From Balanoglossus misakiensis (taxonomy: Eukaryota; Animalia; Hemichordata): a stretch of 64,000 bases of DNA. Each line of letters opens with the position of its first letter. Within the stretch, counting starts at the first letter, position 1. The notes beneath the pieces are model-generated. The model saw nothing but the letters and a program-made list of their open reading frames with translations, was not told the DNA's origin and ran no database searches. Position numbers and translations under genes: made by a program. The stretch covers positions 7,765,097 to 7,829,096 of the forward strand of contig CM082598.2 in the NCBI GenBank assembly GCA_040954595.2, given 5' to 3'. Shown piece by piece: positions 35,607-64,000 of the stretch.

Positions 35607-36249
35607 GTAGGTGTATATTTTATACTTTATCAAATCTTTCAACAGTACACCAGAGACTCCCATGCAAATTTGTTAAGCAATACTTTTTGTATGAAGTAAA
35701 GACGAATGGCGACCTTTTAGGATTTTGGTCGGGTTTCTAATGTGTGCAGTTTCATTGTATTGCAAAGTTGTGGCGTAATAATTGTACCATGTTTGTTAAT
35801 ATGTTGAACTCTAAATAGATGTAACTTGAGTCACGAACGGTTGCGACATGCAAGTACTGAAATGTCGCCATCTCAGAAAAGAACTTCATCGCCACTTTTT
35901 GTATTGGTTCTCTCTTGCGTGTCTAATAAAACCTTCGTCGCGAGAACGTTACAGTATCCACATTACCGGCAGACAAAATAAGTGTAAACGTCCTCTAAAA
36001 ATAAACGGGAAACCCGTTTTACTAAAAGGTGTATCCGATCTGCACCATCGATTTATTGCACTTTGAATGAATGATGTTACCAGAAATTGCAATATTCAGC
36101 GTGGCAGTTTCTTGTCAGATATGGACCTAACAGACTTCAATGAATCACTTATACAAGCCGAAGTGAACATGGCGCCCTTTTGTGACCCAACGCCTCGTTG
36201 AATACCACTTATCCTAAACCAGTTATTTCTTGTGGGTTTTACATTACAG

Positions 36250-36702
36250 GTGAACCAGTGTCGAATACACCTGGGTATACAGACCATGTTAGCTCTGATG
36301 TTACTGACACCAGTTCTTCAAAAATGTCAACAGATGTCACAGAAGATACTGGCGCTGATGCTAAATCTGAAACTAGAATGACTGAAACAGAATCCTCGTT
36401 AGAGTTAACCGTAATGCAGCGATACGAAACGACAGATAACGAAGTTCTGACAGACATCCCTGATGACAAGGGCACTGAGAGCGTGTCTGGTTTCATCTTG
36501 AAGGAAAACCCTACTGTAACGGCTACAACTGTAGTGCATGGGACTGAACCAGACGTTGAGGGAGCCCACACTGATTCTGTCTCCATATCAACAGATACAA
36601 TCGACGCCAGCATCTTCTCTCCTCATACTGCATGTAAAGGTCCACTGTGCCAACATTTCCCAAGCATTAGTGTTGTCGATGGCGATTCGAAAGTGCCCCG
36701 CT
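36250..36702 (+). CDS. Ser/Thr/acidic mucin-like stalk exon (copy 1)
   Basis: ttacag| 453 nt open, phase 1-1 |gtaagt. EPVSNTPGYTDHVSSDVTDTSSS... Confidence 0.8.
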
Positions 36703-36762
36703 GTAAGTATAGGCTCACTGTGCTTCACAATCACAATTGTAGAAACAAAACACAATCAAATA

Positions 36763-39680
36763 TTAAAGCTGCAAGCAGCATTGTCGGGCCCAAGCGCTGA
36801 TCTTGAATTATATATGCACAGTATAAATGAGAAAAAACAGAAATTTCTATCGTATGTATTATCTGATGACATAACAAGGATGTGTGTATTTTTGCTGCTG
36901 AAATGGGGTGAAGTAGGTCAAAGGTCACCTGAGGTCACCCAACATTTGGGCAATTTTTTTTGACCCATACTGGTCCATGTCCAACAAAAAACAAAACTCT
37001 AGCTCTATTGGTTCGCCTGTAATTAGGTATGTGCATATTTAATGAGGTCAGCAGGTGTCACAGGTGACTCAAAAATATGGCTTTACATTTTGGTCCCATC
37101 CTACCAAATGCCATGGCTGTATCTGCTCTGGATGCTGAGATATGCGAAAGTAGGTCAAAGGTCACCAGAGGTCATGCAACATTTGGGCAAAAAAATTTGA
37201 TCCCATACTGGTCTGTGTCCAACAAAAACCAAACCTCTAGCTCTATTGGTTCGCCTGTAATTAGCTATGCACATAATTAATGAGGTCAGCAGAGGTCAAA
37301 GGGGTCATGAAAAGTAGCAAAATATTTTGATCACACACTAATCCACATTCATCAAAAACCAAACGTCTAGCCCTATTGGTTAGCCTGGAATTAGATATGC
37401 AGAAATAATAACGCGTGATAAGTAGGTCAAAGGTCATGTGAAAAATCGCCAAAAAATTGTAACATATTTTAGTCACATGACGATTGATATCCATAAAAAG
37501 AATTTGTATGCTATCAATTTTTAGACTAGAAAAAGGAATTTCAATTTTTCACTGCTTTTTACAAAATCCAATATGGCCGCCATAATCTTCGACCAATCAC
37601 AATGCTCTTTGCAAACTTGATAGACATCAGTGTAGTGACCATACTCCCCGAATCTTGCGACTCAGTCATCGCCCGTTCTGGAGAAGAAGATTTTTGGAGT
37701 TTAACTATGGTTTTTCTAAAATCCAATATGGCCGCCATAATCTTCGACCAATCACAATGATCTTCGCAAACTTGATAGACATCAGTTAGGTGACCACATA
37801 CCCCAAACCCCGTGTCTCGGTTATCACCGGTTCTGGAGAAGAAGATTTTTGAAATTTAAGCCAGATTTCAGAAAAAAAATTGTAGCAAAAAAACTGCAAC
37901 ATTGACAGCAAAATTTCCAATTACAAAAATGATGGGTAGAAGGTAGTCTACCTGCATGCCAAATTTGAAGTCGATCTGACTTGTAGTTTCTGAGATCTGA
38001 GATTTGAATTTTTTCAGAAAATCCAATATGGCCGCCAGGTCACGTGACTAATTAATTATTCACAAGTCACTGCACATCTACTCATTGACCTTGACCACTG
38101 TATCAAGTTTGAGAAGTGTACCTGCAGTAGTTTCAGATATCTCGTTGGCCGAAGAAATTGACACAAGAAAAAAGAAAGAAAGAATATAGCTGCAAGCAGC
38201 AATGGCGGGCCCAAGCCAACATAGCACATAGCAACATAGCAATAAGCATATCTGCTCTGGATGCCAAGATATGGAAAAGTAGGTCAAAGGTCACCTGAGG
38301 TCATGCAAAATTTGGGCGATAAATTTTGACCCTATACTGGTCCATGTTCATCAAAAACCAAACCTATAGCCCTATTGGTTAGCCTGGAATTAGGTATGCA
38401 CATAATTAATGAGGTAGGCAGGTGTCACAGGTGACCCCCCAATTTGGCTTTTCAATTTTAGTCCCAACCATCCAAACGCCAATTCTGTATCTGCTCTGGA
38501 TGCCAAGATATGGTAAAGTAGGTCAAAGGTCACCTGAGGTCATGCAAAATTTGGGCAATAAATTTTGACCCTATACTGGTCCACGTTCAACAAAAACCAA
38601 ACCTATAGCCCTATTGGTTAGCCTGGAATTAGGTATGCACATAATTAATGAGATATGCAGGTGTCACAGGTGACCCCTATTTTGGCTTTTCAACTTTAGT
38701 CCCAACCCTCCAAACGCCAAGTCTGTACCTGCTCTGGATGCCGAGATATAGGAAAGTAGGTCAAAGGTCACCTGAGGTCACCCCAAATTTGGGCAAGAAA
38801 TTTTGACCCTATACTGGTCCATGTCCCACAAGAACGAAACCTCTAGCCCTCTTAGTTAGCCCAGAATTAGGTATGCACATAATTAATGAGTTAAGCAGGT
38901 GTTACAGGTGAGCCTAAAATTTTGCCTTTTATTTTGGTGCCATTGTGCTCACTGACCAATAGACACTCACTGTACAGGACTATTGCACTGACCAGAATTC
39001 CACAATAAGACATGGACATAGAGGTATAAGTAAAGGTATAAATTTATTTAAAAAATTAATATAAAAAAATCCGTCGATTTTTCATATTATTTTTTTTCGC
39101 TTAAAATTATTGACAAATGCTAGTCTAGCTGCACACCAAAGTTGGAGATGATTGGCCTAACAGATTTTGAGATATGTATGCATATTTATCCAAAATAATA
39201 TGTGGTCATAGCTTTACTATGGAAAGTATAGGCCCATGGCTTGGTCAAAAAATATGAAAAATAATACTTAAAAATCTTCTTCTCAAAATTGGCATGGCCA
39301 ATGGCCTTGACATTTGGCAAGTAGGACACTGACCACATGGTCCGCAAAAGTTGCTAAAAGAATATTGATATCTCCATTCATATGCAAATAAGGCCGATTT
39401 GGAAATTTTGCCCATATATGGTCATCAGGTCACGTGACTAATTTAACATTCACAAGGGTACTGCACTAGCTCTCATTGGCCTGCACCATTGTGCCAAGTT
39501 TGAAATTGTTAGGTTTAGCAGTTTTCCAGATCTAGCTGGACAAAAAAACGACACAAGAAGAAGAAGAAGTAGAAGAAAAACCCCAGTAATACCAATAGGG
39601 CCCAAGCCTGCTGGGCTTGGGCCCTAAAAAACCCCAACGAAACCAATAGGGCCCAAGCGCTTGCGTGCGCTTGGGCCCTA
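36763..39680 (-). mobile_element. Two nested Helentron-type non-autonomous elements (inner copy ~38186-39628)
   Basis: Absent from duplicate copy 2 and without TSD. Each copy has agctgcaagcagc...gggcccaagc at one end and a GAA microsatellite plus a gggcccaag...cttgggccc hairpin at the other. Internal ~240-bp repeats. Confidence 0.8.
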
Positions 39681-40563: not shown

Positions 40564-41206
40564 GTAGGTGTATATTTTATACTTTATCAAATCTTTCAAC
40601 AGTACACCAGAGACTCCCATGCAAATTTGTTAAGCAATACTTTTTGTATGAAGTAAAGACGAATGGCGACCTTTTAGGATTTTGGTCGGGTTTCTAATGT
40701 GTGCAGTTTCATTGTATTGCAAAGTTGTGGCGTAATAATTGTACCATGTTTGTTAATATGTTGAACTCTAAATAGATGTAACTTGAGTCACGAACGGTTG
40801 CGACATGCAAGTACTGAAATGTCGCCATCTCAGAAAAGAACTTCATCGCCACTTTTTGTATTGGTTCTCTCTTGCGTGTCTAATAAAACCTTCGTCGCGA
40901 GAACGTTACATTATCCACATTACCGGCAGACAAAATAAGTGTAAACGTCCTCTAAAAATAAACGGGAAACCCGTTTTACTAAAAGGTGTATCCGATCTGC
41001 ACCATCGATTTATTGCACTTTGAATGAATGATGTTACCAGAAATTGCAATATTCAGCGTGGCAGTTTCTTGTCAGATATGGACCTAACAGACTTCAATGA
41101 ATCACTTATACAAGCCGAAGTGAACATGGCGCCCTTTTGTGACCCAACGCCTCGTTGAATACCACTTATCCTAAACCAGTTATTTCTTGTGGGTTTTACA
41201 TTACAG

Positions 41207-41659
41207 GTGAACCAGTGTCGAATACACCTGGGTATACAGACCATGTTAGCTCTGATGTTACTGACACCAGTTCTTCAAAAATGTCAACAGATGTCACAGA
41301 AGATACTGGCGCTGATGCTAAATCTGAAACTAGAATGACTGAAACAGAATCCTCGTTAGAGTTAACAGTAATGCAGCGATACGAAACGACAGATAACGAA
41401 GTTCTGACAGACATCCCTGATTACAAGGGCACTGAGAGCGTGTCTGGTTTCATCTTGAAGGAAAACCCTACTGTAACGGCTACAACTGTAGTGCATGGGA
41501 CTGAACCAGACGTTGAGGGAGCCCACACTGATTCTGTCTCCATATCAACAGATACAATCGACGCCAGCATCTTCTCTCCTCATACTGCATGTAAAGGTCC
41601 ACTGTGCCAACATTTCCCAAGCATTAGTGTTGTCGATGGCGATTCGAAAGTGCCCCGCT
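41207..41659 (+). CDS. Stalk exon (duplicate copy 2)
   Basis: Copy of 36250-36702 with one D>Y and one silent change. Splice sites intact. Confidence 0.7.
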
Positions 41660-42128
41660 GTAAGTATAGGCTCACTGTGCTTCACAATCACAATTGTAGA
41701 AACAAAACACAATCAAATAATATAAAATGAGACTGGGCGGCCTTAATAATTTGAAACACCTGCATGATATCACTTCTTTATTTTGCCAGAGGTCCGTGCA
41801 TCTTTCTTTCACGGTTTTGTCTTCTGGCTGCATTTATGGTTGTCTGTGCTAGGCCACGCTGTGCTGCTGATGTTGTGTGTGTGTGTGTGTGTGTGTGTGG
41901 TTTTTGATTGGCCATGTACCAGTCAATGGTAAAATATATTTGCCTAGTGATTTTATTGAATATATAGATGGTTATGCTCGCAAATATATAATACTGTATT
42001 TCATAAGTAACCTGAATGGATCCTGCCCACGTCACAAGTAACCCGAATGAATCCTGCCCACGCCTATAGCCCAAGGCCTCATATTCTGCACTTTAAGCTT
42101 TTTTGCTATCCATTTTTTTTCTTGACAG

Positions 42129-44994: not shown

Positions 44995-47600
44995 TAGTCA
45001 ATCTACGAGATTTGGGCACCTAACCCACCACAAATTGCAACAGAATTTTGTCTTCAGAATATTAGTCCATGGGCCAGACAGGAATTTGGTATCAGAAAGA
45101 TGGACAAAGCCTCACATTGTTTTTTGGAAAGGCCTATATCTCTAGATTATAAATTGGGGTGATAGCCCTGCCTATCGAGTAGCTTTCTGCATTTTTTCCC
45201 TCAAAAACTTATGTAAGAACCTAAAAATTTCCGATCCAAATTTTGGGGGTAGGGATACTTTAAATTGCTGTAACTCCAGCAAAACTAAAGCCAGAACAGT
45301 CATTTACCACTCAAATTGTGTGTTTTTTAGAACTCTACCAATATAATATATTTTGGTGGTAATTCGTTTTGAATTGAGGTCAATAGAGGTCAAAAGGTCA
45401 TGAAATTTGGGTCATTCTGAAAATTTGTAGTATGACTATTTCTTGAACGATTTTTTTGAACTTAAGTCTTCAAATGTCATTTACAAGATAAAATACTCTC
45501 CCAGAATCTATTTCAAACCAATAGAAAACCTTATTATTCATTTATGACCAGAAAAACACAAATAAAGAGAAACGACAGAAAGACATCCAATTTTCCACTC
45601 AGATTTAAGGGTAGGGGAAACTTAAGTTCTTGTAACTCCGGCAAAAATAACCCCAGAACAGTCATCTACCACTCAAATTGTGTGTTTTGTAGAACTCTAC
45701 CAATATAATATATTTTGGTGATAATTCGTTTTGAATTGAGGTCAATAGAGGTCAAAAGGTCATGAAATTTGGGTCATTCTGAACATTTGTAGTATGACTA
45801 TTTCTTGAACGATTTTTTTGAACTTATAAGTCTTTAAATGTCATTTAGAAGATAAAATACTCTCCCAGAATCTATTTCAAACCAATAAAAAACCCTATTA
45901 TTCAATTACGATCAGAAAAACACAAATACAGAGATACGGAAGAATGGCACAAGACTTCAGACCCTGTTATTGGGGTAGTAGTTGTAACTCCGGCAAAAAT
46001 AAAGCCAGAAAAGTCATCTACCTCTCAAATTGTGTGTTTTTTAGCACTCTAGTGATTGTATATGTATTTGTTGCAATTTTGTTTTGAATTTAGGTCAAAG
46101 AGGTCAAAAGATCACAAGATTTGGGTAATTTCGAAAAATTATGGTACGAACATTTCCGCATTAATTTTTTAAACCCAAGTCTTCAAATGTCATTTATGAG
46201 ATAAAATACTCTACACGATTTTTTTTCAGACCAATTGAAGACCTTATTATTCAATTACAATCAGAAAAAAAATTAATAGAGAAACGGGATAATAACAAAC
46301 AATTTCCCACGGATTTGGGGGTAGGTTTGGCCATCTAACAGGTAAGTATACACCCAATTGATCATGCACATATGGTGTTTAGGAGAACGGATGTGCAAAT
46401 TTGTGAACCTTTGCATGCTGCTCATGTGCACTGTACTTGTATGATGATTCCTAACAATACTACGAGAAGGGGCCATTATAGCATTGTAGCTCTGATTGTG
46501 TATTATTGTTGGATACCATCCTACAGTGTACAGGCACAGCAGATGACAAGCCAAGCAAAGGTTCAAAAATCTGCTTATTTTTCCCCTCGACACAATATGA
46601 GCATGATCTGTTTATATTCAGGTCCAGTATAATAAATAAAAAATGGCAAACCCATCTTCTATTCCACACAAGAGGGCTCGACGGGATTGTTTTCTCGACT
46701 GTCATGAATCCGACCATAAAGCAAGCCTCGTCACTCTACAAGATCACGCCTCCTGGATAACTTTGCTGAATACAGCTAACATACAAAAATACAAACCAAT
46801 TCAGGACCTCGCCATTGGTTTGGGCGAAGGTGAAATTCCTCAGGTGCAGTACCATCGGAAATGCCGAAGTCTCTTTACGATGAAAAAGGCTCTTGAATCT
46901 ATCCTTTCTAAAGAGCAGTCGTCATCAACTGAGGGAACCAATACACTGGAACGTAAAAAAGAGGTCGAGCATACAAGGGTCTCGGGTGTACAATCACATT
47001 TGCCTATTTTGCTCCACCACCAAGTACATGAAGGGAAGTAGGACAAGAGCTCCTTTAGTTCGTTGTCAGCAATTGCGTGCGGACAACACATTAAGGGAGG
47101 CAGCAACAAGAAAAAACGACAGTAAAATTCGTGCACTTCTCAGTCGTGAGTTGGTTGCTGCTGAGGGTCACTATCATAGAAAGTGTTATAGGGACTAAAC
47201 AAGGCCTGATATTCAAGCAGGTTCAAGTCATATGGAGGTTGATGAAAGTCAACATGATCAAGATACTAGTTATGAGGATGTCCTGCAAATTGCTCAAGAA
47301 GAGTTATTTTCTTTTATCAGAAATGATTTGTTCACAAACCCTGAGGTAGTTCCCCTGACTGATCTATCAAACAAGTTAGTTACCAAAATGCTCCAACTTG
47401 GTGTTAAACAGGTTAACAATTCCACCAACAAAACTTGCAGCATACGCTAAATACGGAATTCAAAGGGACAATGATGTAAATGGTAGGGTGCTTGTATATC
47501 CGTCTCACTAGATATAGGTACTGTTGACCTGAAGTACAATGCTGAAAAGAACTTCTTGCAGCAGAAAAACAATCACATGAAAGTATCATCACCACATCTG
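44995..47600 (+). mobile_element. 5' portion of an Academ-like DNA transposon
   Basis: TAGTCA terminus, three ~360-bp subterminal tandem repeats (45245-46325), then a broken transposase N-terminus. Confidence 0.55.
46643..47450 (+). pseudogene. Academ-like transposase N-terminal region (frameshift plus stop)
   Basis: QYHRKCRSLF ... ICLFC ... ELVAAEGHYHRKCY motifs. Frameshift near 46960 and stop at 47196-47198. Confidence 0.65.
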
Positions 47601-51601: not shown

Positions 51602-53395
51602 TAGTCCTGTTTCAAAATGACCTACATTACACGTCCTATACACATGTATTGCCTGTTCTGATTGGTTTATCCGATTCTCTAAGGTCCACTTGCGGACTAG
51701 TCCTGTTTCATAAGTCAGGTCCAAGACATAAGTACCGACATCTGTGATTGGTCGATCTGGTAATCTTAGGCCCACTTGCGGCTCGCTGATTGGAGGGACC
51801 TTGTAGGTTAGGTCTTATTACTATGTATTATTCACTAGACCTTGTAGCTTAGGTCTTATTACTATGCATTATTCACTTTAGAGCTCCCTGATTGGTTAAC
51901 GTGTTAGTCTGGTCCCCCATGTGTTCACTGCCTCATTATACAGGACTTTGTAGGTTAGGTCTTATTAATATGTATTTATTCACCATACAGCTCCCTGATT
52001 GGTTAACATGTCAGTCTGGTCCCCCAGTGTTCACTGCCTCATTGTGAAATGTCCCATGTGCTTCCTGGTAACACATTATTCGGGATGTCCGCAGATCATT
52101 CATTGATTTTCTGAGAAATAGCCTGACTGATACTATCTCCAACATAAACCGCACCCTGGAAAGATTAAAGGATTTTTAGATGGACTTTGAAAATCTGATT
52201 AACTCATCTAAGCATTTTTGCTAACAGTTGTATATTTTTTTAATCACCCTCCTACTTCTCATCATCAATATTATTATTGTTGTTTTACTATTTTAAAGTA
52301 AATATGTTTTGACGAACATGTTGTGATAAGGAGCACGTTGTCCGTTTATACATTCGTATATTGTTTTCATAAAAATGGAACTATGACGGTGCAGCTTCGT
52401 GAAAGAAGTTCAATAAAAGTAATCATACCTGTAAAGCAACTAATGAGGTATCCCAATTAAAGAAATGCAATGCTATTCTAAACATTTCTATTGTAAGATA
52501 TTTTTGGTTTGCTCGAATGAATAGCACACACTTCGTATTCAGCCAGGTGTTACACGAAGTGATGCGCTGAAAGGCATTACGTAACAAAACACTAGCCCAT
52601 TTCAACAAACCGCCACTGGAAATAAAATACGAAATTTCTCCTGACAATTTTTATTTCGAGTATCTAGTTCACAGTATCACATAAAATGCCATGAATAGTG
52701 AAGGAAAAGGTGAAATCCAATCATTATATGAGTGCCTTTCTTTATACACTGGGATCGAGCTTCGACCACGCGCAGGCAGCATGCCAGACAGTATACGACA
52801 ACTGTGTTCAGAAAGTACAAAAGACTTTGCATAACGAGGCAGTGAAAATTGGAGACCTACACATTAACCAATCAGGGAGCTGAAAATTGAATAAATGCAT
52901 GTTAATAAGACCTAACCTACAAGGTCCTGTATAATGAGGCAGTGAACACGTGGGGGACCAGACTAACACGTTAACCAATCAGGGAGCTGTATGGTGAATA
53001 AATACATATTAATAAGACCTAACCTATAAGGTCCTGTATAATGAGGCAGTGAACACATGGGGGACCAGACTAACACGTTAACCAATCAGGGAGCTGTATG
53101 GTGAATAAATACATATTAATAAGACCTAACCTATAAGGTCCTGTATAATGAGGCAGTGAACACTGGAGGACCAGACCTACACATTAACCAATCAAGGAGC
53201 TGTAAAGTGAATAATGCATAATAATAAGACCTAACCTACAAGGTCTAGTGAATAATACATAGTAATAAGACCTAACCTATAAGGTCCCTCCAATCAGCGT
53301 GCCGCAAGTGGACCTTAGAGAATCGGATAAACCAATCAGAACAGGCAATACATGTGTATAGGACGTGTAATGTAGGTCATTTTGAAACAGGACTA
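51602..53395. mobile_element. Foldback-like TIR element with TAG...CTA termini (Academ-type) and ~108-bp subterminal repeats
   Basis: tagtcctgtttcaaaatgacctacattacacg... is inverted at ...cgtgtaatgtaggtcattttgaaacaggacta (~85 bp perfect). No clean TSD. Confidence 0.8.
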
Positions 53396-53482
53396 CTACA
53401 ACTGAGTCTAAACTTATATTGTATTAACGTAAACAAATGCGTTGCCTGCATGTTTAAGATCACTTCACACTAACTTTTACAG

Positions 53483-53641
53483 GCTTTGCAGAAATTTTCA
53501 CGAATCTCCGGGGAAGAAAGTAGTTATCGAAGAAGTAATGTGCGGGGGTGACAGTATCTGCACTTCCCAAAAGGGTACAATTATACGTCAGGTGTTCCCA
53601 TCCGTCAAATGCAAAAGGATGAACATAAACGGAAAACGGTG
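53483..53641 (+). pseudogene. P-like transposase gene exon with the first half of an RFX-like winged helix
   Basis: ttttacag| LCRNFHESPGKKVVIEEV...KGTIIRQVFPSVKCKRMNINGKR, followed by the donor GTATCCTTT. Confidence 0.6.
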
Positions 53642-53947
53642 GTATCCTTTACAAATGATATATTTTCATTGTCTGTCTTTTAACGACAACAACGGGCAAG
53701 TGATTGTATTTCAACCACAGAAATGTGGAAATCATCGGCGGAGTCATCATTCTCCACAGAGCTAGATTATAGTCATGAAAGTGGAGAATGTGGGGCCGTC
53801 ATAGTGCAGTGCAGTGTCGAGTCCTGCAGCGTCTTCTGCTGCGGTCGATACTTGAACCTTGACCCGTGTGTCACGTTAGTTTGTTCGAGGTTTATATAAA
53901 TAGTTTTTCTGAAATTATGAAAAAAACCTTGACGAAATCATATCCAG
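53642..53947 (+). other. U12-type (minor spliceosome) GT-AG intron
   Basis: 5' splice site GTATCCTTT, branch-like ACCTTGAC at ~53926-53933 and AG at 53946-53947. Splicing joins the two ORFs in frame (GKR-C-NIYVNLER). Confidence 0.75.
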
Positions 53948-54570
53948 TAACATTTATGTAAACTTGGAAAGGGGACCAGGAAAGATTTTCCGTAAATACC
54001 CAGACCGGCTTTCATGGCATGATTTGTGCAAGTTTGACACAAATGACACTGACAGCGCGCTCGGGTGGATCCCACGGGGTCGGCAGAATTCCGAAGACCC
54101 ACGTCCGTATTTCGAGTGGGTGCTATTTGAAAATGGTGCTACCTGTAAAGGACATAAAGTGGTACGTGAACTGAGAATATATGAGGACTACTCATGGGAC
54201 TTGCGTGTTCTCCGTCGGCGTGCTACACAGTGCCTTGGCCTGCCTGCTGTGCTGACCGGTAAAGTAGATGAAATCTACGCACTGTTTGTAGCTGCGGCCA
54301 CTGCCAAACTTTGTCCAAGATTTGGTGTCATCTTACATCGGGATGCGAAGTCAACAGTGAACGGTGAAGAGCTTGGCAGTGCAGAAAGCTGGGTGAACAA
54401 CGAGCTACCTGAGGCATCTCTTATGCACTGATCTGTGCAGTGTGAAGTTTCGCTCTCGATGCCATATTCAGAATTCACTTGCAAACGCTGTGCGTGTTTA
54501 AAGAAAAACTGTGGCAGAGACATGTTCGCTAAACCCACAGCACCACCATCGAAGTTCAAAAGAGAGTCCG
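53948..54570 (+). pseudogene. P-like transposase gene exon (Cys-rich region), cut by an LTR insertion
   Basis: Open except for TGA at 54429 (probable CGA>TGA). Reads ...KLCPRF...H*SVQCEV...FTCKRCACL...SKFKRES. Confidence 0.7.
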
Positions 54571-55024
54571 TGTTACGGCCGGCCGTCCTTCGGACGTTTC
54601 ACCTCCTTCGAGGCTTCTGTGGGGAATCAGCCATGTCCGAAGGCTGACGGCGTAAATTCCCTCCATCTCCTTCTCCAACCAACATATTCATAGAGTCTGA
54701 GAGAGGTACCCGGCAGATCGTAAACCATTCAACAGTATAGAAAACATTTTCCAATTTCCGAAAAGTAGCCGTTTTTTAAACTTTTTTCAAGGAAATTAGT
54801 GTTTTGTTCACAGTACAATATATTTCGATATTTTTCTATGATTATTTTCAAGATGTTTGCGAGTGTGCAGAAAGTAAAGAATAAACTGTGAAATTTCCAT
54901 AGAAATAATGAAGGAGCCATCTTTAGGTTGTATGGATTTGAATATTTCATTGAAAAAAACTAATAACTAAATTATGAATTCAATTAATAGTACAATTTGC
55001 AAAAAATTGCTAGTCACTCCAGAA

Positions 55025-55370
55025 GGGTCAGTGCTTGGAAATGTGAGAGCCTGGAAATTTCCAAGCACTGACAAGGGTCAGTGGTCGGAAATGCCCAGAC
55101 ACTCAGGGAATGTGAGAGCCTTGGAAATTTCCAAGCACTGACAAGGGTCAGTGGTCGGAAATTTCCAGACACTCAGGGAATGTGAGAGCCTGGAAATTTC
55201 CAAGCACTGACAAGGGTCAGTGGTCGGAAATTTCCAGACACTCAGGGAATGTGAGAGCTTAGAAATTTCCAAGCACTGACAAGGGTTAGTGGCCGGAAAT
55301 ATCCAGTCACTCGGGGAATGTGAGAGCCTGGAAATTTCCAAGCATTGACAGGGTCAGTGCTTGGAAATCT
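55025..55370 (+). repeat. 69-bp tandem array (~5 units), left arm
   Basis: Unit cactgacaagggtcagtggtcggaaatttccagacactcagggaatgtgagagcctggaaatttccaag. Confidence 0.9.
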
Positions 55371-55820
55371 TGAGTTTCTCTATCATGTTTCAAATTATGG
55401 CCTTTAGGAAAACGATCTGTTGAGAAACTTCGCCTGTATTTATATCTTCAACCCTACGGATGAGTTTGGTCGTTTGACTGCGGTGGCCTCTTCTGCTGTT
55501 CTTCTCTCTCTCCATGCCCGACATCCTGGTCTCGGCACCAACAAATGTACCGCGTACACTTGGGAATAGGTTCGGAATGAAGAGAGAGGGGCGGGATGGC
55601 CAATACTTCTTTATATACAGTGGTTTGAACTGTGACATTTGGTAACACTGCATAATTCAAGAACAATAGCATTTGGTAGTTGTGAAGTTGTGACTTTGTA
55701 TACAGAGTAGAAAGAACAATTGTGTCAGATAAACAATACCAATTCCCAATAAACAACTAGTGTATGGGCTAACTCAGAGGAGTTGGTAGGCGAAGCCTGT
55801 CATGAACATTGGGACGCTAA

Positions 55821-56204
55821 GGCTCCTTAGACAAACCTGGTGCGTCTGCGGTCCAGATCCGTACCAGAGCTTTTCGCCGAAATTCGATTTTATCGGGAGA
55901 ATATCCTTTCCCTGTCTACTAACCGGTTATAACCGCGATTGACTTCTTCTAACATCCGAACCGCTCGCTTTCTGAAACTTTTGTGTTTACCCATTGAGAT
56001 AACCTCACTGTATTCAATATGGCGATCTCAACAGGTAAACACAAGAGAAAATCAGAAAGCGAGTGGCTCGGAAGTTAATTACATCATATTTGGAGTCATT
56101 TGTGGGTAGACGGGGGAAAGATTCCCCCCGATAAAATCCAATCTCGGCCGAAAAGCTGCTGTCCGGATCCGGATCTCAGACGAATCAGTTTTGTCCATGG
56201 AGCC
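55821..56204. mobile_element. MITE (Harbinger-like termini) nested in the AACAG element
   Basis: ggctcc..agacaaac...gattttatcggg is inverted at cccgataaaatc...tttgtccatggagcc. TSD is imperfect (TAA/TTG). Confidence 0.55.
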
Positions 56205-56274
56205 TTGCAGAGATGTGGTGGAAGCCGTGTATTAAACGCCGGGAGAACGCAGACATGTACGGAGGACTACCACG

Positions 56275-56795
56275 ACCCTGTCAGTGCTTGGAAAGTTCAA
56301 GGCTCTCACATTCCCTGAGTGTCTGGAAATTTCCGACCACTGACCCTTGTCTGTGCTTGGAAATTTCTAAGCTCTCACATTCCCTGAGTGTCTGGAAATT
56401 TCCGACCACTGACCCTTGTCAGTGCTTGGAAATTTCCAGGCTCTCACATTCCCTGAGTGTCCGGAAATTTCCGACCACTGACCCTTGTCAGTGCTCGGAT
56501 ATTTCTAAGCTCTCACATTCCCTGAGTGTCTGTGGAAATTTTCGACCACTGACCCTTGTCAGTGCTTGGAAATTTCCAGGCTCTCATATTCCCTGAGTGT
56601 CTGGAAATTTCCGACCACTGACCCTTGTCAGTGCTTGGAAATTTCCAAGGCTCTCACATTCCCTGAGTGTCTGGGCATTTCCGACCACTGACCCTTGTCA
56701 GTGCTTGGAAATTTCCAGACTCTCACATTCCCTGAGTGTCTGGAAATTTCCGACCACTGACCCTTGTCAGTACTTGGAAATTTCCAAGCTCTCAC
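56275..56795 (-). repeat. 69-bp tandem array (~7.5 units), right arm, inverted relative to the left arm
   Basis: Reverse complement of the 55025-55370 unit. Confidence 0.9.
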
Positions 56796-58605
56796 ATGCC
56801 ACTGACTCTTTCCAAGTATTTTAGCCGCAAAATATGGATTTGTCAATGAGCAGTGCTTATTTCCTAAAATTCATACGAAATCCAACGGATTTGTGTGATA
56901 CGGATATTAATCTAACAATTCTTGTAATAAATATTGGGTTTCAGATTTACTTTTTGATGCTATTGTTTTTTCTGGCGAAATTTTACAAACAATTCACACA
57001 CTTGCAAATTTTCAATAGAAATATTACTCATGATAAACATGGAGACAAAATTTCATTAGAAAAAAATCAAAAGGACTGTCATGTACGTGGCTTTGAAGGA
57101 GACTCAGTTTTTTCACAGATAAATTTTAATTTTAGTTTAAAGCCAAAATATGACAAAATGCATTTTTCCTGCTGTACAGCTGCAGGAAAGAGACTAAGAA
57201 TACCATTATGTAATTTTTTCATTAGAAATTGGCAAAGAATGGGGAATATTTTCATAAATTTCTAACTTTTTCAGCAGTAATTATGTAAAAAAGAGGTTTT
57301 TCGGAAATTGGAAAATGTTTTCTATACTGTTATTCGTAGACAGAGACTTACAACAAGTTTTCCGAGTAACACAAAGTTCTGGTTTATTACTGGTCACACG
57401 TAAGAATTACACGACTCGATCCATGCTCGTTGACTCCCATCACGGATCTCCCGTTATAATCGTGTGATCTCAAATTTCACCACACCTTATTAATACGTTA
57501 GTCAAGGATTAAGTCATAAAAGGAACACGTCATCTTAATATTTCTTAAACATGAACTTAGCGCGTGATATCTCTATCTCGTTCTGACATGTATCAATTAC
57601 ACAATCTTGTTTACTCTGGGTCAAGTACATATGTCAATTCTGGACTAAAACCATACAAGTGAATGACTTCTTACTTAATCATAAACAAGATCTATGATCG
57701 TTAAAACTCAATCGTGACACAGTTCAATGTCATTCTATCACAGTTCTTTTGCGATAGCAGACGATTCAAGAGTCTTCCCTTCTTCATTCCACGAGACCTC
57801 TTTTCTTCGTCGCCAGAACTGCTTCAACTACATGCTTCTGGATACGACGCCCCTCTGATCAAACAACAGATCCATCGTTGAAAACCCGTCCACGCATTCC
57901 ATGCAGTCAACAGTCAGCACCAACCTTTTTTCTGTTCTCGTTTCCTTCTGAAGCAGACCATTGGATCATCAGTTTCGCCAGCTTTTTCTCTTCTTACTTC
58001 TTTCTCGGTTTAGGAATCAGTTGCAACATCTCTTCCTACCCGGATTCTAACACCATGTTGTTACGGCCGCCGGCCGTCCTTCGGACGTTTACCTCCTTCG
58101 GACGCTTCTGTGGGGAATCAGCCACGTCCGAAGGCTGGGAGCGTAAATTCTCTCCATCTCCTTCTCCAACCAACATATTCATAAAGTCCGAGAGAGGTAC
58201 ACGGCAGATCGTAAACCATTCGTAGACAGAGACTTACAACAAGTTTTCCGAGTGACACAAAGTTCTGGTTTATTACTGGTCACACGTAAGAATTACACGA
58301 CTCGATCCATGCTCGTTGACTCCCATCACGGATCTCCCGTTATAATAGTGTGATCTCAAATTTCACCACACCTTATTAATACGTTAGTCAAGTATTAAGT
58401 CATAAAAGGAACACGTCATCTTAATATTTCTTAAACATGAACTTAGCGCGTGATATCTCTATCTCGTTCTGACATGTATCAATTACACAATCTTGTTTAC
58501 TCTGGGTCAAGTACCTATGTCAATACTGGACTAAAACCATACAAGTGAATGACTTCTTACTTAATCATAAACAAGATCTATGATCGTTAAAACTCAATCT
58601 TGACA

Positions 58606-58877
58606 TCGGCAATGAACAAAGAAGAACTTAAAGAAAAGCTCTCAGAAGAAAGGAGGCTGAAAATCAATACCATGAAAAGAGAAAGCAGACTTCGTGCCAA
58701 GTTGTCAGGAGAAATGCTGGAATTTTCTGCTGACAGTCATGAAGATGTCCACAATATGTTCAGCTGCACAAATGCAGAAGAAGTCTTTGGGGACAACAAA
58801 GATTTAAACATTCTATGGGACGAACAAAGAAAGGCTCTGCAGAGCAAAGGACCAACTGAAAGGCAATGGCACCCAAA
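58606..58877 (+). pseudogene. P-like transposase: coiled coil and the (R)WHP motif
   Basis: SAMNKEELKEKLSEERR...LWDEQRKALQSKGPTERQWHP, followed by the donor gtaagt. Confidence 0.8.
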
Positions 58878-59048
58878 GTAAGTCTTTAGACAGTCACTTC
58901 ACACTCTTGACCACTGTATTTATCATAAACTGAGAGCATGGTGTGATAATTCTGTGTATAAAACCAATTTTATCATGAAGTCAAAAGTGTTGTATTCAGC
59001 AAATTTTCAGTGAAATAACCAATAAAATGTTTACTTTTTATTGTACGG

Positions 59049-59142
59049 GGTTATAAAAATGTGTCTTTCGGTTTGGATGAGAAGCCAGAAAGCATATGAT
59101 GAAGTGAGCGGAATGATAACATTACCATCGGGAAGACCCTTA
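59049..59142 (+). pseudogene. P-like transposase exon, first part
   Basis: VIKMCLSVWMRSQKAYDEVSGMITLPSGRPL matches the P-transposase pattern CL....SP.AY...LPS.RTL. The acceptor reads GG instead of AG. Confidence 0.85.
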
Positions 59143-59143
59143 A

Positions 59144-60952
59144 AGTGAACCGACACCTTCCTTGTAGAGAGATTCTAATAAAATCTTTGTGAAAAACATG
59201 AGTGATTTGCGTCGTTTTTATTCACTTTCACTTATCGCGCAGCAGCGTAGCGTCGATCTCGATATGCAGTGTGACGTCACAGACTAGTCACCAGTAGCAG
59301 ACGCCACCGTGCGCACGCTAACGTACGCAGACATTTGACATGGCTGGCTGCCTCGCAAGTGGGAGCAAACACAGAGTTGGCAAAAACACGGCGAAAGGTT
59401 TTATAAAAGTTCCCGACCCTTCGGTGGACAGTCAAAATGCAAATCGAGCTGAAAAATGGGTGTCAAACATTGGCATATTATTTCGGTGCTTATTGCTCAG
59501 ACAGATGATACTTTTGCTTCGGAAATGTTCGTGTTCAACTAGGCCCTATCGTGAAGCATATTGCAAAAAAAATACTACACAGCAAAAATTGTCGAAACAG
59601 CCGGGGCCTCTGATTTCCTTTGATCACCATATGACGAAACCGAATATTTGGCACTGTAAATCAAAACTCTGATCGGAAGAAAGTAGTGTGGCGGAAATAG
59701 GCCTACTAGTGAACACTGTTTTTGTCGCGTACCCAAGCTGTGAATGCATCGCAAAACCATTTCCAAAGACAAAAACGACCACCTCTACCATCTGGAAGCA
59801 CCACAGATGTACTCGAAACATGACAATCGGAGTTTCTGCCTCCCTTTAATCAACAAAGCCGCATCTTTTCACAGCTGTTGATCAACGTAAAGGATGGTAG
59901 ACACGTGTGGTAGACATTTTCGCAAGGGTGTCAATAGGTTTACTTTCTATTCTTTTGGGAAATCACAAGGGTCCCTATTGTGACATGGGTGACTAAATGT
60001 CAAAAATTATCGCATGGCTTCGTGATATGTCGTTCAAGTCTTTATCTAACGGCCTTGTCAAGACATCTATTTCATGGCAGCACCGGCATTCCTTGACAGT
60101 AGAAATAACTTCGCATTTACCGCAGCGCAGCTACACCATGAGCATGAGCGTGATGAAAGACGAAGCCGATCACTCTTCTCGATCGTCTTTGTTGTCTACA
60201 CTTGCCTCTGTACTATTGGAATCAGTTTCACTTGAGTCGCCTACCATCTCATCGCTGCTGTATTTGGGTTCGTACAAAAATCCGACGATATCTTCGTTTG
60301 AAAACTCCATATCGCGTGGTCGTTTTTGTCCTTGGAAATGGTTTTGCGGTGCATTCACAGCTTGGGTACGCGACAAAAACAGTGTTCACTAGTAGGCCTA
60401 TTTCCGCCACACTACTTTCTTCCGATCAGAGTTTTGATTTACAGTGCCAAAAATTCGGTTTCGTCATATGGTGATCAAAGGAAATCAGGAGCCCCGGATG
60501 TTGCGACAATTTTTGCTGTGTAGTTTTTTTTTTTTGCAATATGCTTCACGATATAGGGCCTAGTTGAACACGAACATTTCCGAAGCAAAAGTATCATCTG
60601 TCTCAGCAATAAGCACCGAAATAATATGCCAATGTTTGACACCCATTTTTCAGCTCGATTTGCATTTTGACTGTCCACCGAAGGGTCGGGAACTTTTATA
60701 AAACCTTGTGTTTTGCCAACTCTGTGTTTGCTCCTACTTGCGAGGGAGCCAGCCATGTCAACTGTCTGCGTACGTTAGCGTGCGCACGGTGGCGTCTGCT
60801 ACTGGTGACTAGTCTGTGACGTCACACTGCATATCGAGATCGACGCTACGCTGCTGCGCGATAAGTGAAAGTGAATAAAAACGACGCAAATCACTCATGT
60901 TTTTCACAAAGATTTTATTAGAATCTCTCTACAAGGAAGGTGTCGGTTCACT
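59144..60952. mobile_element. Kolobok-derived palindromic element with ~640-bp inverted arms
   Basis: TTAA|agtgaaccgacacc ... ggtgtcggttcact|TTAG. Arms at 59144-59782 and 60316-60952 each start a THAP-like ORF. The spacer encodes KolX-like GFLYEP...CGKCEVISTVKECRCCHEID on the minus strand. Confidence 0.85.
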
Positions 60953-60955
60953 TTA

Positions 60956-61091
60956 GGTATGTATGTCAATTGTGTTGATCACAGCCCTTAACGACAACTT
61001 TCTAGAATGGATGGTGGAAGCAGCTGAAAAAATGAAACTTTCATCTGAGGGTGGAAATGGTGGCATAATACTAGATGAAATGGCAATACAG
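60956..61091 (+). pseudogene. P-like transposase exon, second part with the first catalytic Asp (DEM motif)
   Basis: GMYVNCVDHSP / frameshift / NDNFLEWMVEAAEKMKLSSEGGNGGIILDEMAIQ, then the donor gtttgt. Confidence 0.85.
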
Positions 61092-61154
61092 GTTTGTATG
61101 CTTTCTTCTCCAAACTGAACAAATTAAGGATAAAGTGAAAAAAGAAGAAAAAGA

Positions 61155-64000
61155 ATATTTAAAATTCGCAAAGTCGAAAAATTGTCATTTTTGGATGATT
61201 CTCATGAGCTATAACCCATGATTTTTATCAAAAAATGGATAAGTATTGAAATTTCGCAAAGTCGAAAAAATTGTAATTTTAGGATGATTTTCATGAGCTA
61301 TAACCCATGATTTTTATCAAAAATGGATAAGTATTGAAATTTCACAAAGTCGAAAAATTGTCATTTTTGGGGTGATTTTCGTGAGCTGTAACCCATGATT
61401 TTTATCAAAAAATGGATAAACATTGAAATTTCGCAAAGTAAAAAAATTGTCATTTTTGGGTGATTTTCATGAGCTATAAGCCATGATTTTTATCAAAAAT
61501 GGATAAATATTGAAATTTCGCAAAGTCGAAAAAATTGTAATTTTAGGATGATTTTCATGAGCTATAACCCATGATTTTTATTACAAAAAAATGGATAAAT
61601 ATTGAAATTTCGCAAAGTCGAAAAAATTGTAATTTTTGGATGATTTTCATGAGCTATAACCCATGATTTTTATCACACAATGAATAAATATTGAAATTTC
61701 GCAAAGTCGAAAAAATTGTCATTTTTGGATGATTTTCATGAGCTATAACCCATGATTCTAATCAAAAAATGGATAATTATTGAAATTTCGCAAAGTCGAA
61801 AATTGTCATTTTTGGGTGATTTTCATGAGCTATAAACCATGATTTTTATCATAAAATGGATAAACATTGAAATAACGTTGAAATTTCGCAAAGTCGAAAA
61901 ATTGTCATTTTTGGGTGATTTTCATGAGCTATATTAACCCATGATTTTTATCACAAAATGGATAAATATTGAAATTTCGCAAAGTCGAAAAAATTGTTAT
62001 TTTTGGATGATTTTCATGAGTTATAACCCATGATTTTTATCACAAAATGGATAAATATTGAAATTTCGCAAAGTCGAAAAAATTGTCATTTTTGGATGAT
62101 TTTCATGAGCTATAACCCATGATTCTAATCAAAAAATGGATAATTATTGAAATTTCGCAAAGTCGAAAATTGTCATTTTTGGGTTATTTTCATGAGCTAT
62201 AAACCATGATTTTTATCAAAAAATGGATAAACATTGAAATTTCGCAAAGTCGAAAAATTGTCATTTTTGGGTGATTTTCATGAGCTATAAGCCATGATTT
62301 TTATCAAAAATGGATAAATATTGAAATTTCGCAAAGTCGAAAAAATTGTAATTTTAGGATGATTTTCATGAGCTATAACCCATGATTTTTATTACAAAAA
62401 AATGGATAAATATTGAAATTTCGCAAAGTCGAAAAAATTGTCATTTTTGGATGAATTTCATGAGCTATAAGCCATGATTTTTATCAAAAATGGATAAATA
62501 TTGAAATTTCGCAAAGTCGAAAAAATTGTAATTTTAGGATGATTTTCATGAGCTATAACCCATGATTTTTATTACAAAAAAATGGATAAATATTGAAATT
62601 TCGCAAAGTCGAAAAAATTGTCATTTTTGGATGATTTTCATGAGCTATAACCCATGATTTTTATCACACAATGAATAAATATTGAAATTTCGCAAAGTCG
62701 AAAAAATTGTCATTTTTGGATGATTTTCATGAGCTATAACCCATGATTCTAATCAAAAAATGGATAATTATTGAAATTTCGCAAAGTCGAAAATTGTCAT
62801 TTTTGGGTGATTTTCATGAGCTATAAACCATGATTTTTATCATAAAATGGATAAACATTGAAATAACATTGAAATTTCGCAAAGTCGAAAAATTGTCATT
62901 TTTGGGTGATTTTCATGAGCTATATTAACCCATGATTTTTATCACAAAATGGATAAATATTGAAATTTCGCAAAGTCGAAAAAATTGTAATTTTTGGATG
63001 ATTTTCATGAGTTATAACCCATGATTTTTATCACAAAATGGATAAATATTGAAATTTCGCAAAGTCGAAAAAATTGTCATTTTTGGATGAATTTCATGAG
63101 CTATAACCCATGATTCTAATCAAAAAATGGATAATTATTGAAATTTCGCAAAGTCGAAAATTGTCATTTTTGGGTTATTTTCATGAGCTATAAACCATGA
63201 TTTTTATCAAAAAATGGATAAACATTGAAATTTCGCAAAGTCGAAAAATTGTCATTTTTGGGTGATTTTCATGAGCTATATTAACCCATGATTTTTATCA
63301 CAAAATGGATAAATATTTAAAATTCGCAAAGTCGAAACATTGTCATTTTTGGATGATTTTCATGAGCTATAACCCATGATTTTTATCAAAAAAATGGATA
63401 AATATTGAAATTTCGCAAAGTCGAAAAATTGTCATTTTTGGATGATTTTTATGAGCTATAACCCATGATTTTTATCAAAAAATGGATAAATATTGAAATT
63501 TCGCAAAGTCGAAAAATTGTCATTTTGGGTGTTTTTCATGAGCTATAACCCATGATTTTTATCAAAAAATGGATAAATATTGAAATTTCGCAAAGTCGAA
63601 AAATTGTCATTTTTGGGTTATTTTCATGAGCTATAACCCATGATTTTTATCAAAAAATGGAAAAATATTGAATATCGAAAGGTCGAAAAATTGTCATTTT
63701 TGGGTGATTTTCAAGAGCTATAACCCATGATTTTTATCACAAAATGGATAAATATTGAAATTTCGCAAAGTCGAAAAATTTTCATTTTTGGGTGATGTTC
63801 ATGAGCTATAACCCATGATTTTTATCAAAAAATGGATAAATATTGAAATTTCGCAAAGTCAAAAAATTGTCATTTTTGGATGATTTTCATTCGGTATAAC
63901 CCATGATTTTTATCAACAATGGATAAATATTGAAATTTCGCAAAGTCGAAAAATTGTAATTTTTGGATGATTTTCATGAGCTATAACCCATGATTTTTAT
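61155..64000. repeat. ~88-bp satellite array (~32 monomers, runs off the window)
   Basis: Unit ttgaaatttcgcaaagtcgaaaaattgtcatttttggatgattttcatgagctataacccatgatttttatcaaaaaatggataaata. Confidence 0.97.

Follow-up and report, generated by a model that had tools for sequence, protein, structure and literature searches.

A U12-type intron in a broken P-type transposase gene of Balanoglossus misakiensis, at the codon and phase of the RFX5/RFX7 minor intron and likely inherited with a captured RFX5/7 domain

Minor introns are regarded as ancient, almost never newly acquired and restricted to long-established cellular genes, and IVS3, the regulated intron of the Drosophila P element, belongs to the major class. 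When IVS3 is retained a 66-kDa repressor is made, and catalysis by the P transposase uses residues D230, D303 and E531 (PMC7776569, available text). The U12 branch site has been defined as TTCCTTRAC lying no more than about 45 nt from the 3' end of the intron (bioRxiv 10.1101/2020.10.12.336362, available text), and de novo creation of minor introns has very little support outside Physarum (PMC10639083, available text). Among host genes, the relevant introns are those of human and mouse RFX5 (CAA/GTATCCTTG) and mouse Rfx7 (TAA/ATATCCTTT), which are catalogued as minor introns in the available parts of PMC10810330, PMC6717393 and PMC11347168. According to the supplements of those papers, as far as they were available, U6atac knock-down affects the human RFX5 intron in 2 of 9 data sets, U11 loss affects those of mouse Rfx5 and Rfx7 in 3 of 6 each, and rnpc3 loss affects those of zebrafish rfx7a and rfx7b in 1 and 2 of 2, respectively.

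The intron and the gene that carries it

The DNA analysed here (the window) is a stretch of 64,000 nucleotides from B. misakiensis, and all coordinates below are positions within it. The features of the transposase gene are listed first; P0001 and P0002 are protein models from Ptychodera flava, and X1 and X2 are DNA runs of one public sample.

51602..53395 (no strand): inserted foldback element, a long inverted repeat, adjacent to exon A on its upstream side
53483..53641 (+): exon A, 159 nt, encoding the greater part of an RFX-type winged helix; tblastn match to P0001 residues 28-80, 58%
53642..53947 (+): U12-type GT-AG intron, 306 nt, phase 2, in the codon homologous to that of the RFX5/7 minor intron
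53642..53650 (+): U12 donor GTATCCTTT, without variant in the sample contigs that cover it
53857..53879 (+): second CCTTGAC with an AG at 53878-53879, whose use would give a frameshift and an early stop; chance expectation about 2.5%
53927..53933 (+): core of the U12 branch site, CCTTGAC, ending 12 nt before the AG; a minor variant of X1, at about 19x, has C>G at 53928
53948..54566 (+): exon B, first part, comprising the last wing strand and a family-specific beta-rich domain that has Cys pairs; interrupted by a nonsense codon at 54429-54431
54571..58605 (no strand): LTR-like insertion in exon B, TG...CA ends and direct repeats; joint 54566-58606
58606..58877 (+): exon B, second part, coiled coil to WHPK motif; GTAAGT (U2) donor at 58878
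59049..61091 (+): exon C, from the helix-turn-helix region as far as DEM, a motif of the RNase H domain; GT donor at 61092
61154..64000 (no strand): array of an 89-bp satellite, within the intron that follows exon C

A preliminary description of this DNA had reported a U12 donor, a CCTTGAC motif 12 nt before the AG and an in-frame join of the flanking reading frames; all three are confirmed to the nucleotide, and P0001 fixes the ends. By tblastn, P0001 residues 28-80 correspond to exon A and those from 82 onward to exon B (52% identity over 82-299), and the match to this gene model is ungapped across the join, with exactly one split codon left between the exons. The second P. flava model, P0002, likewise spans the intron site, and when 10 frame-keeping GT-AG pairs were tested only the 53642/53947 pair reproduced the spacing of P0001. 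The intron AG is at 53946-53947, the split codon is TG/T (Cys), and the joined frame is free of stops until the nonsense codon at 54429.

The donor GTATCCTTT at 53642 conforms to the RTATCCTT form of the U12 5' splice site. The CCTTGAC core conforms to the branch-site definition, with the two leading T replaced by A, so that the core is preceded by an A run rather than the consensus TT. A donor and branch pair is not significant by itself, since such a pair is present in 23% of 60 Markov-simulated 64-kb windows; it is significant here nonetheless because homology fixes both ends of the intron. As a background rate, GTATCCTT is found at 3 of 7628 GTs, CCTTRAY is found 6-16 nt upstream of 23 of 6501 AGs, and the joint chance of both signals at a site fixed beforehand is about 1e-6. 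By its sequence, then, the intron at 53642-53947 is confirmed as real and U12-type. The remaining three splice sites in view are major-class-looking or damaged; the exon A acceptor, at 53481-53482, is U2-type, and exon A ends in the wing hairpin after two nucleotides of the Cys codon. Rfam gave no match within the window. A CCTTAAC at 60986 was considered as a second U12 branch site and rejected, as it is coding and matches P0001 at the frameshift. The second CCTTGAC and its out-of-frame AG inside the intron, absent from the preliminary description, may have arisen by chance.

The transposase copy in the window is dead: it has a nonsense codon, two exonic insertions, a frameshift and a GG acceptor, as well as a foldback upstream and a satellite downstream. 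The 4.0-kb insertion in exon B has a near-identical 4-bp flanking repeat, contains a nested inverted-repeat element and is absent from one X1 contig. Its internal part is short, and the nested element (55037-56805) has 69-bp repeats in its inverted arms. Exon C is split by a 1.8-kb inverted-repeat insertion at 59144-60956 (or 59141-60955; joint 59143-60957), is frameshifted near 60986 and is preceded by GG at 59047-59048 instead of the expected acceptor AG. The inverted arms of this second insertion are several hundred bases long and 96-99% identical, and it is absent from contigs of both X1 and X2. The rest of the transposase gene, after the satellite, is beyond the window or lost. The first exon was sought upstream of exon A within the window and was not found. 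Terminal repeats and an 8-bp target duplication were likewise not detected in the window, where the 5' and 3' ends of the gene are both out of view. Elsewhere in the window, broken ORFs with Cys/His motifs at 46640-47450 look like the remnant of another DNA transposon and have no Pfam match, and two near-identical Thr/Ser-rich ORFs of about 200 codons (36186-36800 and 41143-41730) lie 4957 bp apart in a local duplication.

Other versions of the gene were compared in one public sample (three DNA runs from one study, X1 and X2 among them); contig assembly drops rare variants, and read depth is not equal to copy number. The sample has contigs that carry neither the stop codon nor either of the exonic insertions, and one contig continues from exon C into the same satellite. 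Gene depth in X1 is 52-62, against thousands for the flanking repeats, and assembly bubbles are split about 19:40; depth and bubbles therefore point to few copies or alleles, not many. All five exonic differences fixed between sample and window alter the protein, and in all five the sample residue is that of P0001 (compared by eye). The major version, the only one in X2, retains the U12 donor and branch core, and its frame is open as far as the contigs reach. The version at about 19x in X1 combines the branch-core C>G with two changes at residues that are conserved in P0001. Intron depth equals exon depth in both runs, and the many near-identical intron copies at unrelated sites that characterize introners were not seen. 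Part of what, according to the preliminary description, would refute its proposal is observed: distant copies are intronless, and the branch site is mutated in one minor variant. The donor is invariant in the sample contigs that cover it.

Protein domains and the consequences of splicing

The downstream ORF has a single match among longer proteins, P0001 (52% identity), and its closest named relatives are from hemichordates. P0001 scores 39.4 bits with PF21787 (cut-off 24.6), which indicates a P-type RNase H core, and its C-terminal half resembles P-transposase/THAP9 clusters in the ESM Atlas (features 0.97, TM 0.89-0.90). The model of the P0001 core is of low confidence, and a fold search with that model matched no P transposase. 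Candidate acidic motifs in P0001 are D462, D562 and E813, assigned by eye and independently of any alignment to the P transposase.

No THAP domain was matched in P0001 or P0002, and an RFX-type wing is found instead. The window exon matches the Pfam RFX_DNA_binding family (PF02257) with E 0.00083 and 20.4 bits, below the gathering score of 27; P0001 scores 14.4 bits, also below 27, and relatives with two wings pass. The N-terminal winged helix of P0001 is predicted with pLDDT 78-96 over residues 21-90, and the solved structure that best fits the AlphaFold model is that of human RFX5, with Z 10.6 and an rmsd of 2.6 A across 75 residues, followed by RFX1 at Z 9.3. A family profile searched against the PDB likewise gave human RFX5 as best match (E 7e-5; RFX1 0.02), ungapped through the wing; single-sequence PDB searches returned noise or nothing. 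The intron falls at residue 81 of the model, within strand 79-89, the second strand of the wing. Judged from these matches, the gene encodes a transposase of the P-element type in which an RFX-type winged helix takes the place of THAP, and the preliminary description was right to see in it a transposase gene whose RFX-like domain is split by the intron.

The domain that follows the wing (window 53949-54566, P0001 95-283) matches no Pfam family. Its predicted fold is of good quality and rich in beta strands, Cys pairs are conserved in it, and its look-alikes in the ESM Atlas are THAP-bearing and echinoderm P-type clusters. Four proteins of about 900-1040 aa (the tunicate P0006 and P0008, with P0010 and P0032; tunicate or unnamed) have two RFX-like wings and this second domain and no transposase core. 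They are possible domesticated derivatives, or the possible donor of this region.

Read-through of the intron ends at 53765, 41 codons into it, so that the product would have only half of the wing and lack the enzyme. With the wing hairpin interrupted by the intron and translation ending so soon, splicing would be obligatory, and an intact copy would make transposase only where minor splicing works. We infer that this dependence is passive and not a regulatory switch. Retention cuts the DNA-binding wing and therefore would give no repressor product like the 66-kDa form of P; the product of the second branch site and AG would be frameshifted.

Host introns, relatives and the origin of the intron

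Comparison of the intron position with host RFX genes, which the preliminary description had pointed to, places it in an unambiguous alignment at the codon and in the phase of the RFX5/7 minor intron. The split Cys of the window aligns ungapped with the Lys of the RFX5 S-K-Y, three codons before the conserved Tyr, and the end of the structural alignment range (92 -> 169) agrees with this assignment. The exon ends CAA and TAA of RFX5 and Rfx7 fit a Ser-Lys split in phase 2; the vertebrate intron is placed at S-K by these letters and by non-human loci, rather than by a gene map. When metagenome contigs were scanned for an RFX wing motif with RTATCC directly behind it, 18 loci (L001-L018) were retrieved, 15 of which have an RFX5/7-type exon (8 distinct types) with RTATCC in the Lys codon in phase 2. 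The scan pattern demanded the donor, and the loci therefore show its presence and not the share of RFX genes that have the intron. RTATCCTTT, the TTT of which lay outside the search pattern, is present at 15 of 15 RFX5/7-type loci and at none of the 3 chance loci. One locus, L006, contains the complete intron (1009 nt, CCTTAAC 9 nt before the AG) and continues correctly; the other 14 RFX5/7-type loci gave no matching acceptor within the contig DNA examined. The subtypes at the 15 loci (11 AT- versus 4 GT-), like mouse Rfx7 versus RFX5, point to repeated subtype switching at one site.

The host exons are 117-120 nt long with a major-class acceptor, and the neighbouring upstream intron that this implies is absent from the transposase gene; the transposase's own upstream intron is absent from the three host loci that could be checked. 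Since the upstream introns differ, one intron site is shared and not a whole exon. Mouse Rfx6, a catalogued minor-intron gene, was set aside as a comparison for its weak scores and different exon end. ARID2, THAP, ZBED and PGBD have no rows in two minor-intron lists, and HARBI has none in one.

The N-terminal 283 residues of P0001 were searched against 1.84 billion representatives and gave 39 matches. In 18 of these a single unannotated ORF runs through the wing and past the intron site; 8 of the 18 end at the WHP[KM] motif, the point at which a GT intron begins in the window, 6 lie on contigs longer than 10 kb, and 11 in all are clearly genomic. A further 14 start downstream of the site and are uninformative, as an intron-bearing copy would look the same, and the remaining 7 are five named gene models and two long two-wing ORFs (models or possible transcripts). 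Two clusters of relatives, with 19 and 9 members, show varied truncations as in mobile families. P. flava has five models (XP_070552284, XP_070556109, XP_070573886, XP_070578680 and XP_070550148, the last from a distant subfamily) on scaffolds of five different lengths. Three of the five are truncated and lack the part upstream of the site, and P0004 begins in unrelated sequence just before the intron site; this hints at an intron there. No family loci were found in viral contigs or in prokaryote genomes. A profile search for longer members of the family was uninformative, as it recovered nothing, P0001 included. The intron itself was observed in the DNA of one species only. A KEN sequence in the loop before the recognition helix is present in 12 of the 18 intronless relatives (P0005, P0007, P0009, P0012 and others), and this stretch is deleted in P0001, P0002 and the window. 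It resembles the KEN-box degron, through which the transposase might be linked to the cell cycle.

Trees were quick searches with hand-chosen rows (an N-terminal tree of 25 proteins plus the window, and a wing tree of 32 rows). In the former the window groups with P0001-P0003 (support 100) and P0004 (93); in the latter (73 columns, 9 host rows) the intron-bearing branch falls inside a group of intronless ORFs, a placement that is weakly supported. Because the quick trees nest it in this way, they suggest three or more intron losses, and a one-loss tree that joins the intron-bearing branch to the hosts is not rejected (p-AU 0.37). The window wing is no closer to RFX5/7 than are those of the intronless relatives P0021 and P0040, which favours one old capture over a fresh one. 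A recent separate recapture from RFX5/7 was considered and finds no support in wing similarity or in the wing tree.

It is likely, in our judgement, that the intron was inherited with a captured RFX5/7 domain, because the fold is RFX5-like, the codon and phase are the same, and host genes have U12 donors there. An ancestral element would have captured the RFX5/7 DNA-binding domain as genomic DNA, intron included; the intron would later have been lost in other branches, in one to several losses, would have been retained in the branch that holds the window copy, and would be removed by the minor spliceosome. Given the intronless relatives, the intron must have been lost elsewhere if it was inherited. 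Of the capture from a host gene that the preliminary description had offered as an alternative, the host origin has become the best-supported reading on account of the RFX5/7 site, and the intact exon pair has been given up, with only one intron site shared. Against inheritance stand the 18 of 39 read-through relatives, the upstream introns of host and transposase that are not shared, the nesting on the quick trees, and a window wing no nearer to RFX5/7 than those of two intronless relatives. The read-through relatives and the unshared introns would suit an independent gain in this branch, by insertion or U2-to-U12 conversion, that fell on the RFX5/7 site by coincidence or through proto-splice context: intronless relatives are the majority of the informative ones and surround the branch on both quick trees, and no other host intron is shared. 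Such a gain would nevertheless have to produce the rare class at the same codon and with an identical phase, a chance of about 1 in 2600 given the number of coding positions in a gene of 879 codons; minor-intron gain is rare besides, and the tree order is weak, as the p-AU of the one-loss tree indicates. We consider it distinctly improbable. A different reading leaves the origin of the intron as in the inheritance account and sees in the gene a resident, domesticated or fixed, host-transposase fusion of which the window is a null allele. The depth of the gene in X1 beside that of its neighbouring repeats, the sample contig that enters the same satellite from exon C as an allele of one locus would, the lack of terminal repeats and target duplication in a gene whose ends are out of view, and the tunicate non-transposase genes with the same two domains all fit this reading. 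It accords poorly with three versions that have private, mostly damaging changes (5 of 5 window-specific exonic changes alter the protein), with the truncated and scattered P. flava models, and with the multi-copy clusters of the relatives, and on balance it seems to us rather unlikely.

The intron might also be a selected brake on the transposase, slow or tissue-limited in its removal and perhaps with a poison acceptor, like IVS3 of Drosophila P, that spreads minor introns. The donor is perfect although the family wing has only 5-12 of 33 identities to host RFX5/7 (9 in the window), a second, out-of-frame branch and AG are present in the intron, minor introns are described as slowly spliced in the available text of bioRxiv 10.1101/2020.10.12.336362, and P is limited by intron retention (PMC7776569, available text). 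However, conserved signals are expected of any intron that needs removal, the second site has the chance expectation listed above, and retention would destroy the DNA-binding wing and yield no repressor. The intron is dispensable in multi-copy relatives, the gene is present in few copies, the branch site is mutated in one variant, and there is no sign of intron movement. We hold a selected brake to be improbable. The same grade applies to the larger proposal of a still-mobile P-type family with RFX5/7 in place of THAP, in which the host intron acts as brake and poison outlet and insertions and domestications copy working U12 introns; if true, this would mean minor-intron gain by transposition in animals and would date the RFX5/7 capture early in animal evolution. 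Neither P-like control by splicing nor the spread of U12 introns through the genome, both raised in the preliminary description, is supported, given the lack of the intron in most informative relatives, the low copy number and the decay of the copies, and for the former also the cutting of the wing on retention. Finally, the letters may be U12-like and the intron be removed by the major spliceosome, or no longer be removed. The TT expected before the branch core is missing, there is an in-frame GT 3 nt ahead of the U12 donor, the window copy is dead, and minor-like introns can use either machine (PMC11347168, available text). This last reading is nevertheless very unlikely in view of the full 9-nt U12 donor, the CC-containing branch core at the canonical distance, the mere 55% pyrimidines in the last 20 nt of the intron, and the major sample version that retains both signals and an open frame over the covered stretch.

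Comparison with known systems

No description of a transposase or transposon that carries a U12 intron was found in the full-text literature (most subscription papers and the minor-intron databases lay outside the scope), nor was one of an RFX-bearing P transposase (with Repbase and most subscription papers outside the scope). The gene points to a P-type transposase family, for which no description was found, in which an RFX-type DNA-binding domain replaces THAP. If the intron was inherited as we propose, a minor intron in a transposase would be a tag that names the donor of the captured domain, here the RFX5/7 subgroup, and a minor intron can reach a new gene without being created. With its intron-bearing and intronless branches, the family would offer a natural experiment on whether a slow intron is lost or retained in mobile DNA.

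The intron of vertebrate RFX5/RFX7 and of the scanned loci is like the one described here in donor class, phase and wing codon, and that of L006 also in its GT-AG subtype and in a branch site at a similar distance. In contrast to the host genes, the intron here lies in a transposase gene and is followed by an exon for a transposon-specific domain; the exon before it measures 159 nt rather than 117-120 nt and has a different 5' boundary, and the wing is only about 27% identical. The tunicate genes LOC120340607 (Styela clava) and LOC108949782-like (Phallusia mammillata) have RFX-like wings and the same downstream domain in common with the window gene, but unlike it they have two wings and no transposase core. 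With Drosophila P and THAP9, as described in the available text of PMC7776569, the gene has in common the PF21787 RNase H region, a predicted core fold and several introns, and with Drosophila P the dependence of transposase output on intron removal (the acidic motifs in P0001 and P0002 being candidates). P and THAP9 have THAP, whereas the window gene has an RFX-type winged helix and a new beta-rich domain (PMC7776569, available text); and retention in Drosophila P gives a repressor, whereas the intron here cuts the DNA-binding domain and would give none (same source). The transposon-made U12 introns of Physarum polycephalum (bioRxiv 10.1101/2020.10.12.336362) and the introners (PMC12130899) likewise link DNA transposons with introns, in the former case U12 introns, in the text available from each source. 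There the element is proposed to become an intron on insertion; here, without the inverted ends and the extra copies of those elements, an old host intron would ride in the gene of an element.
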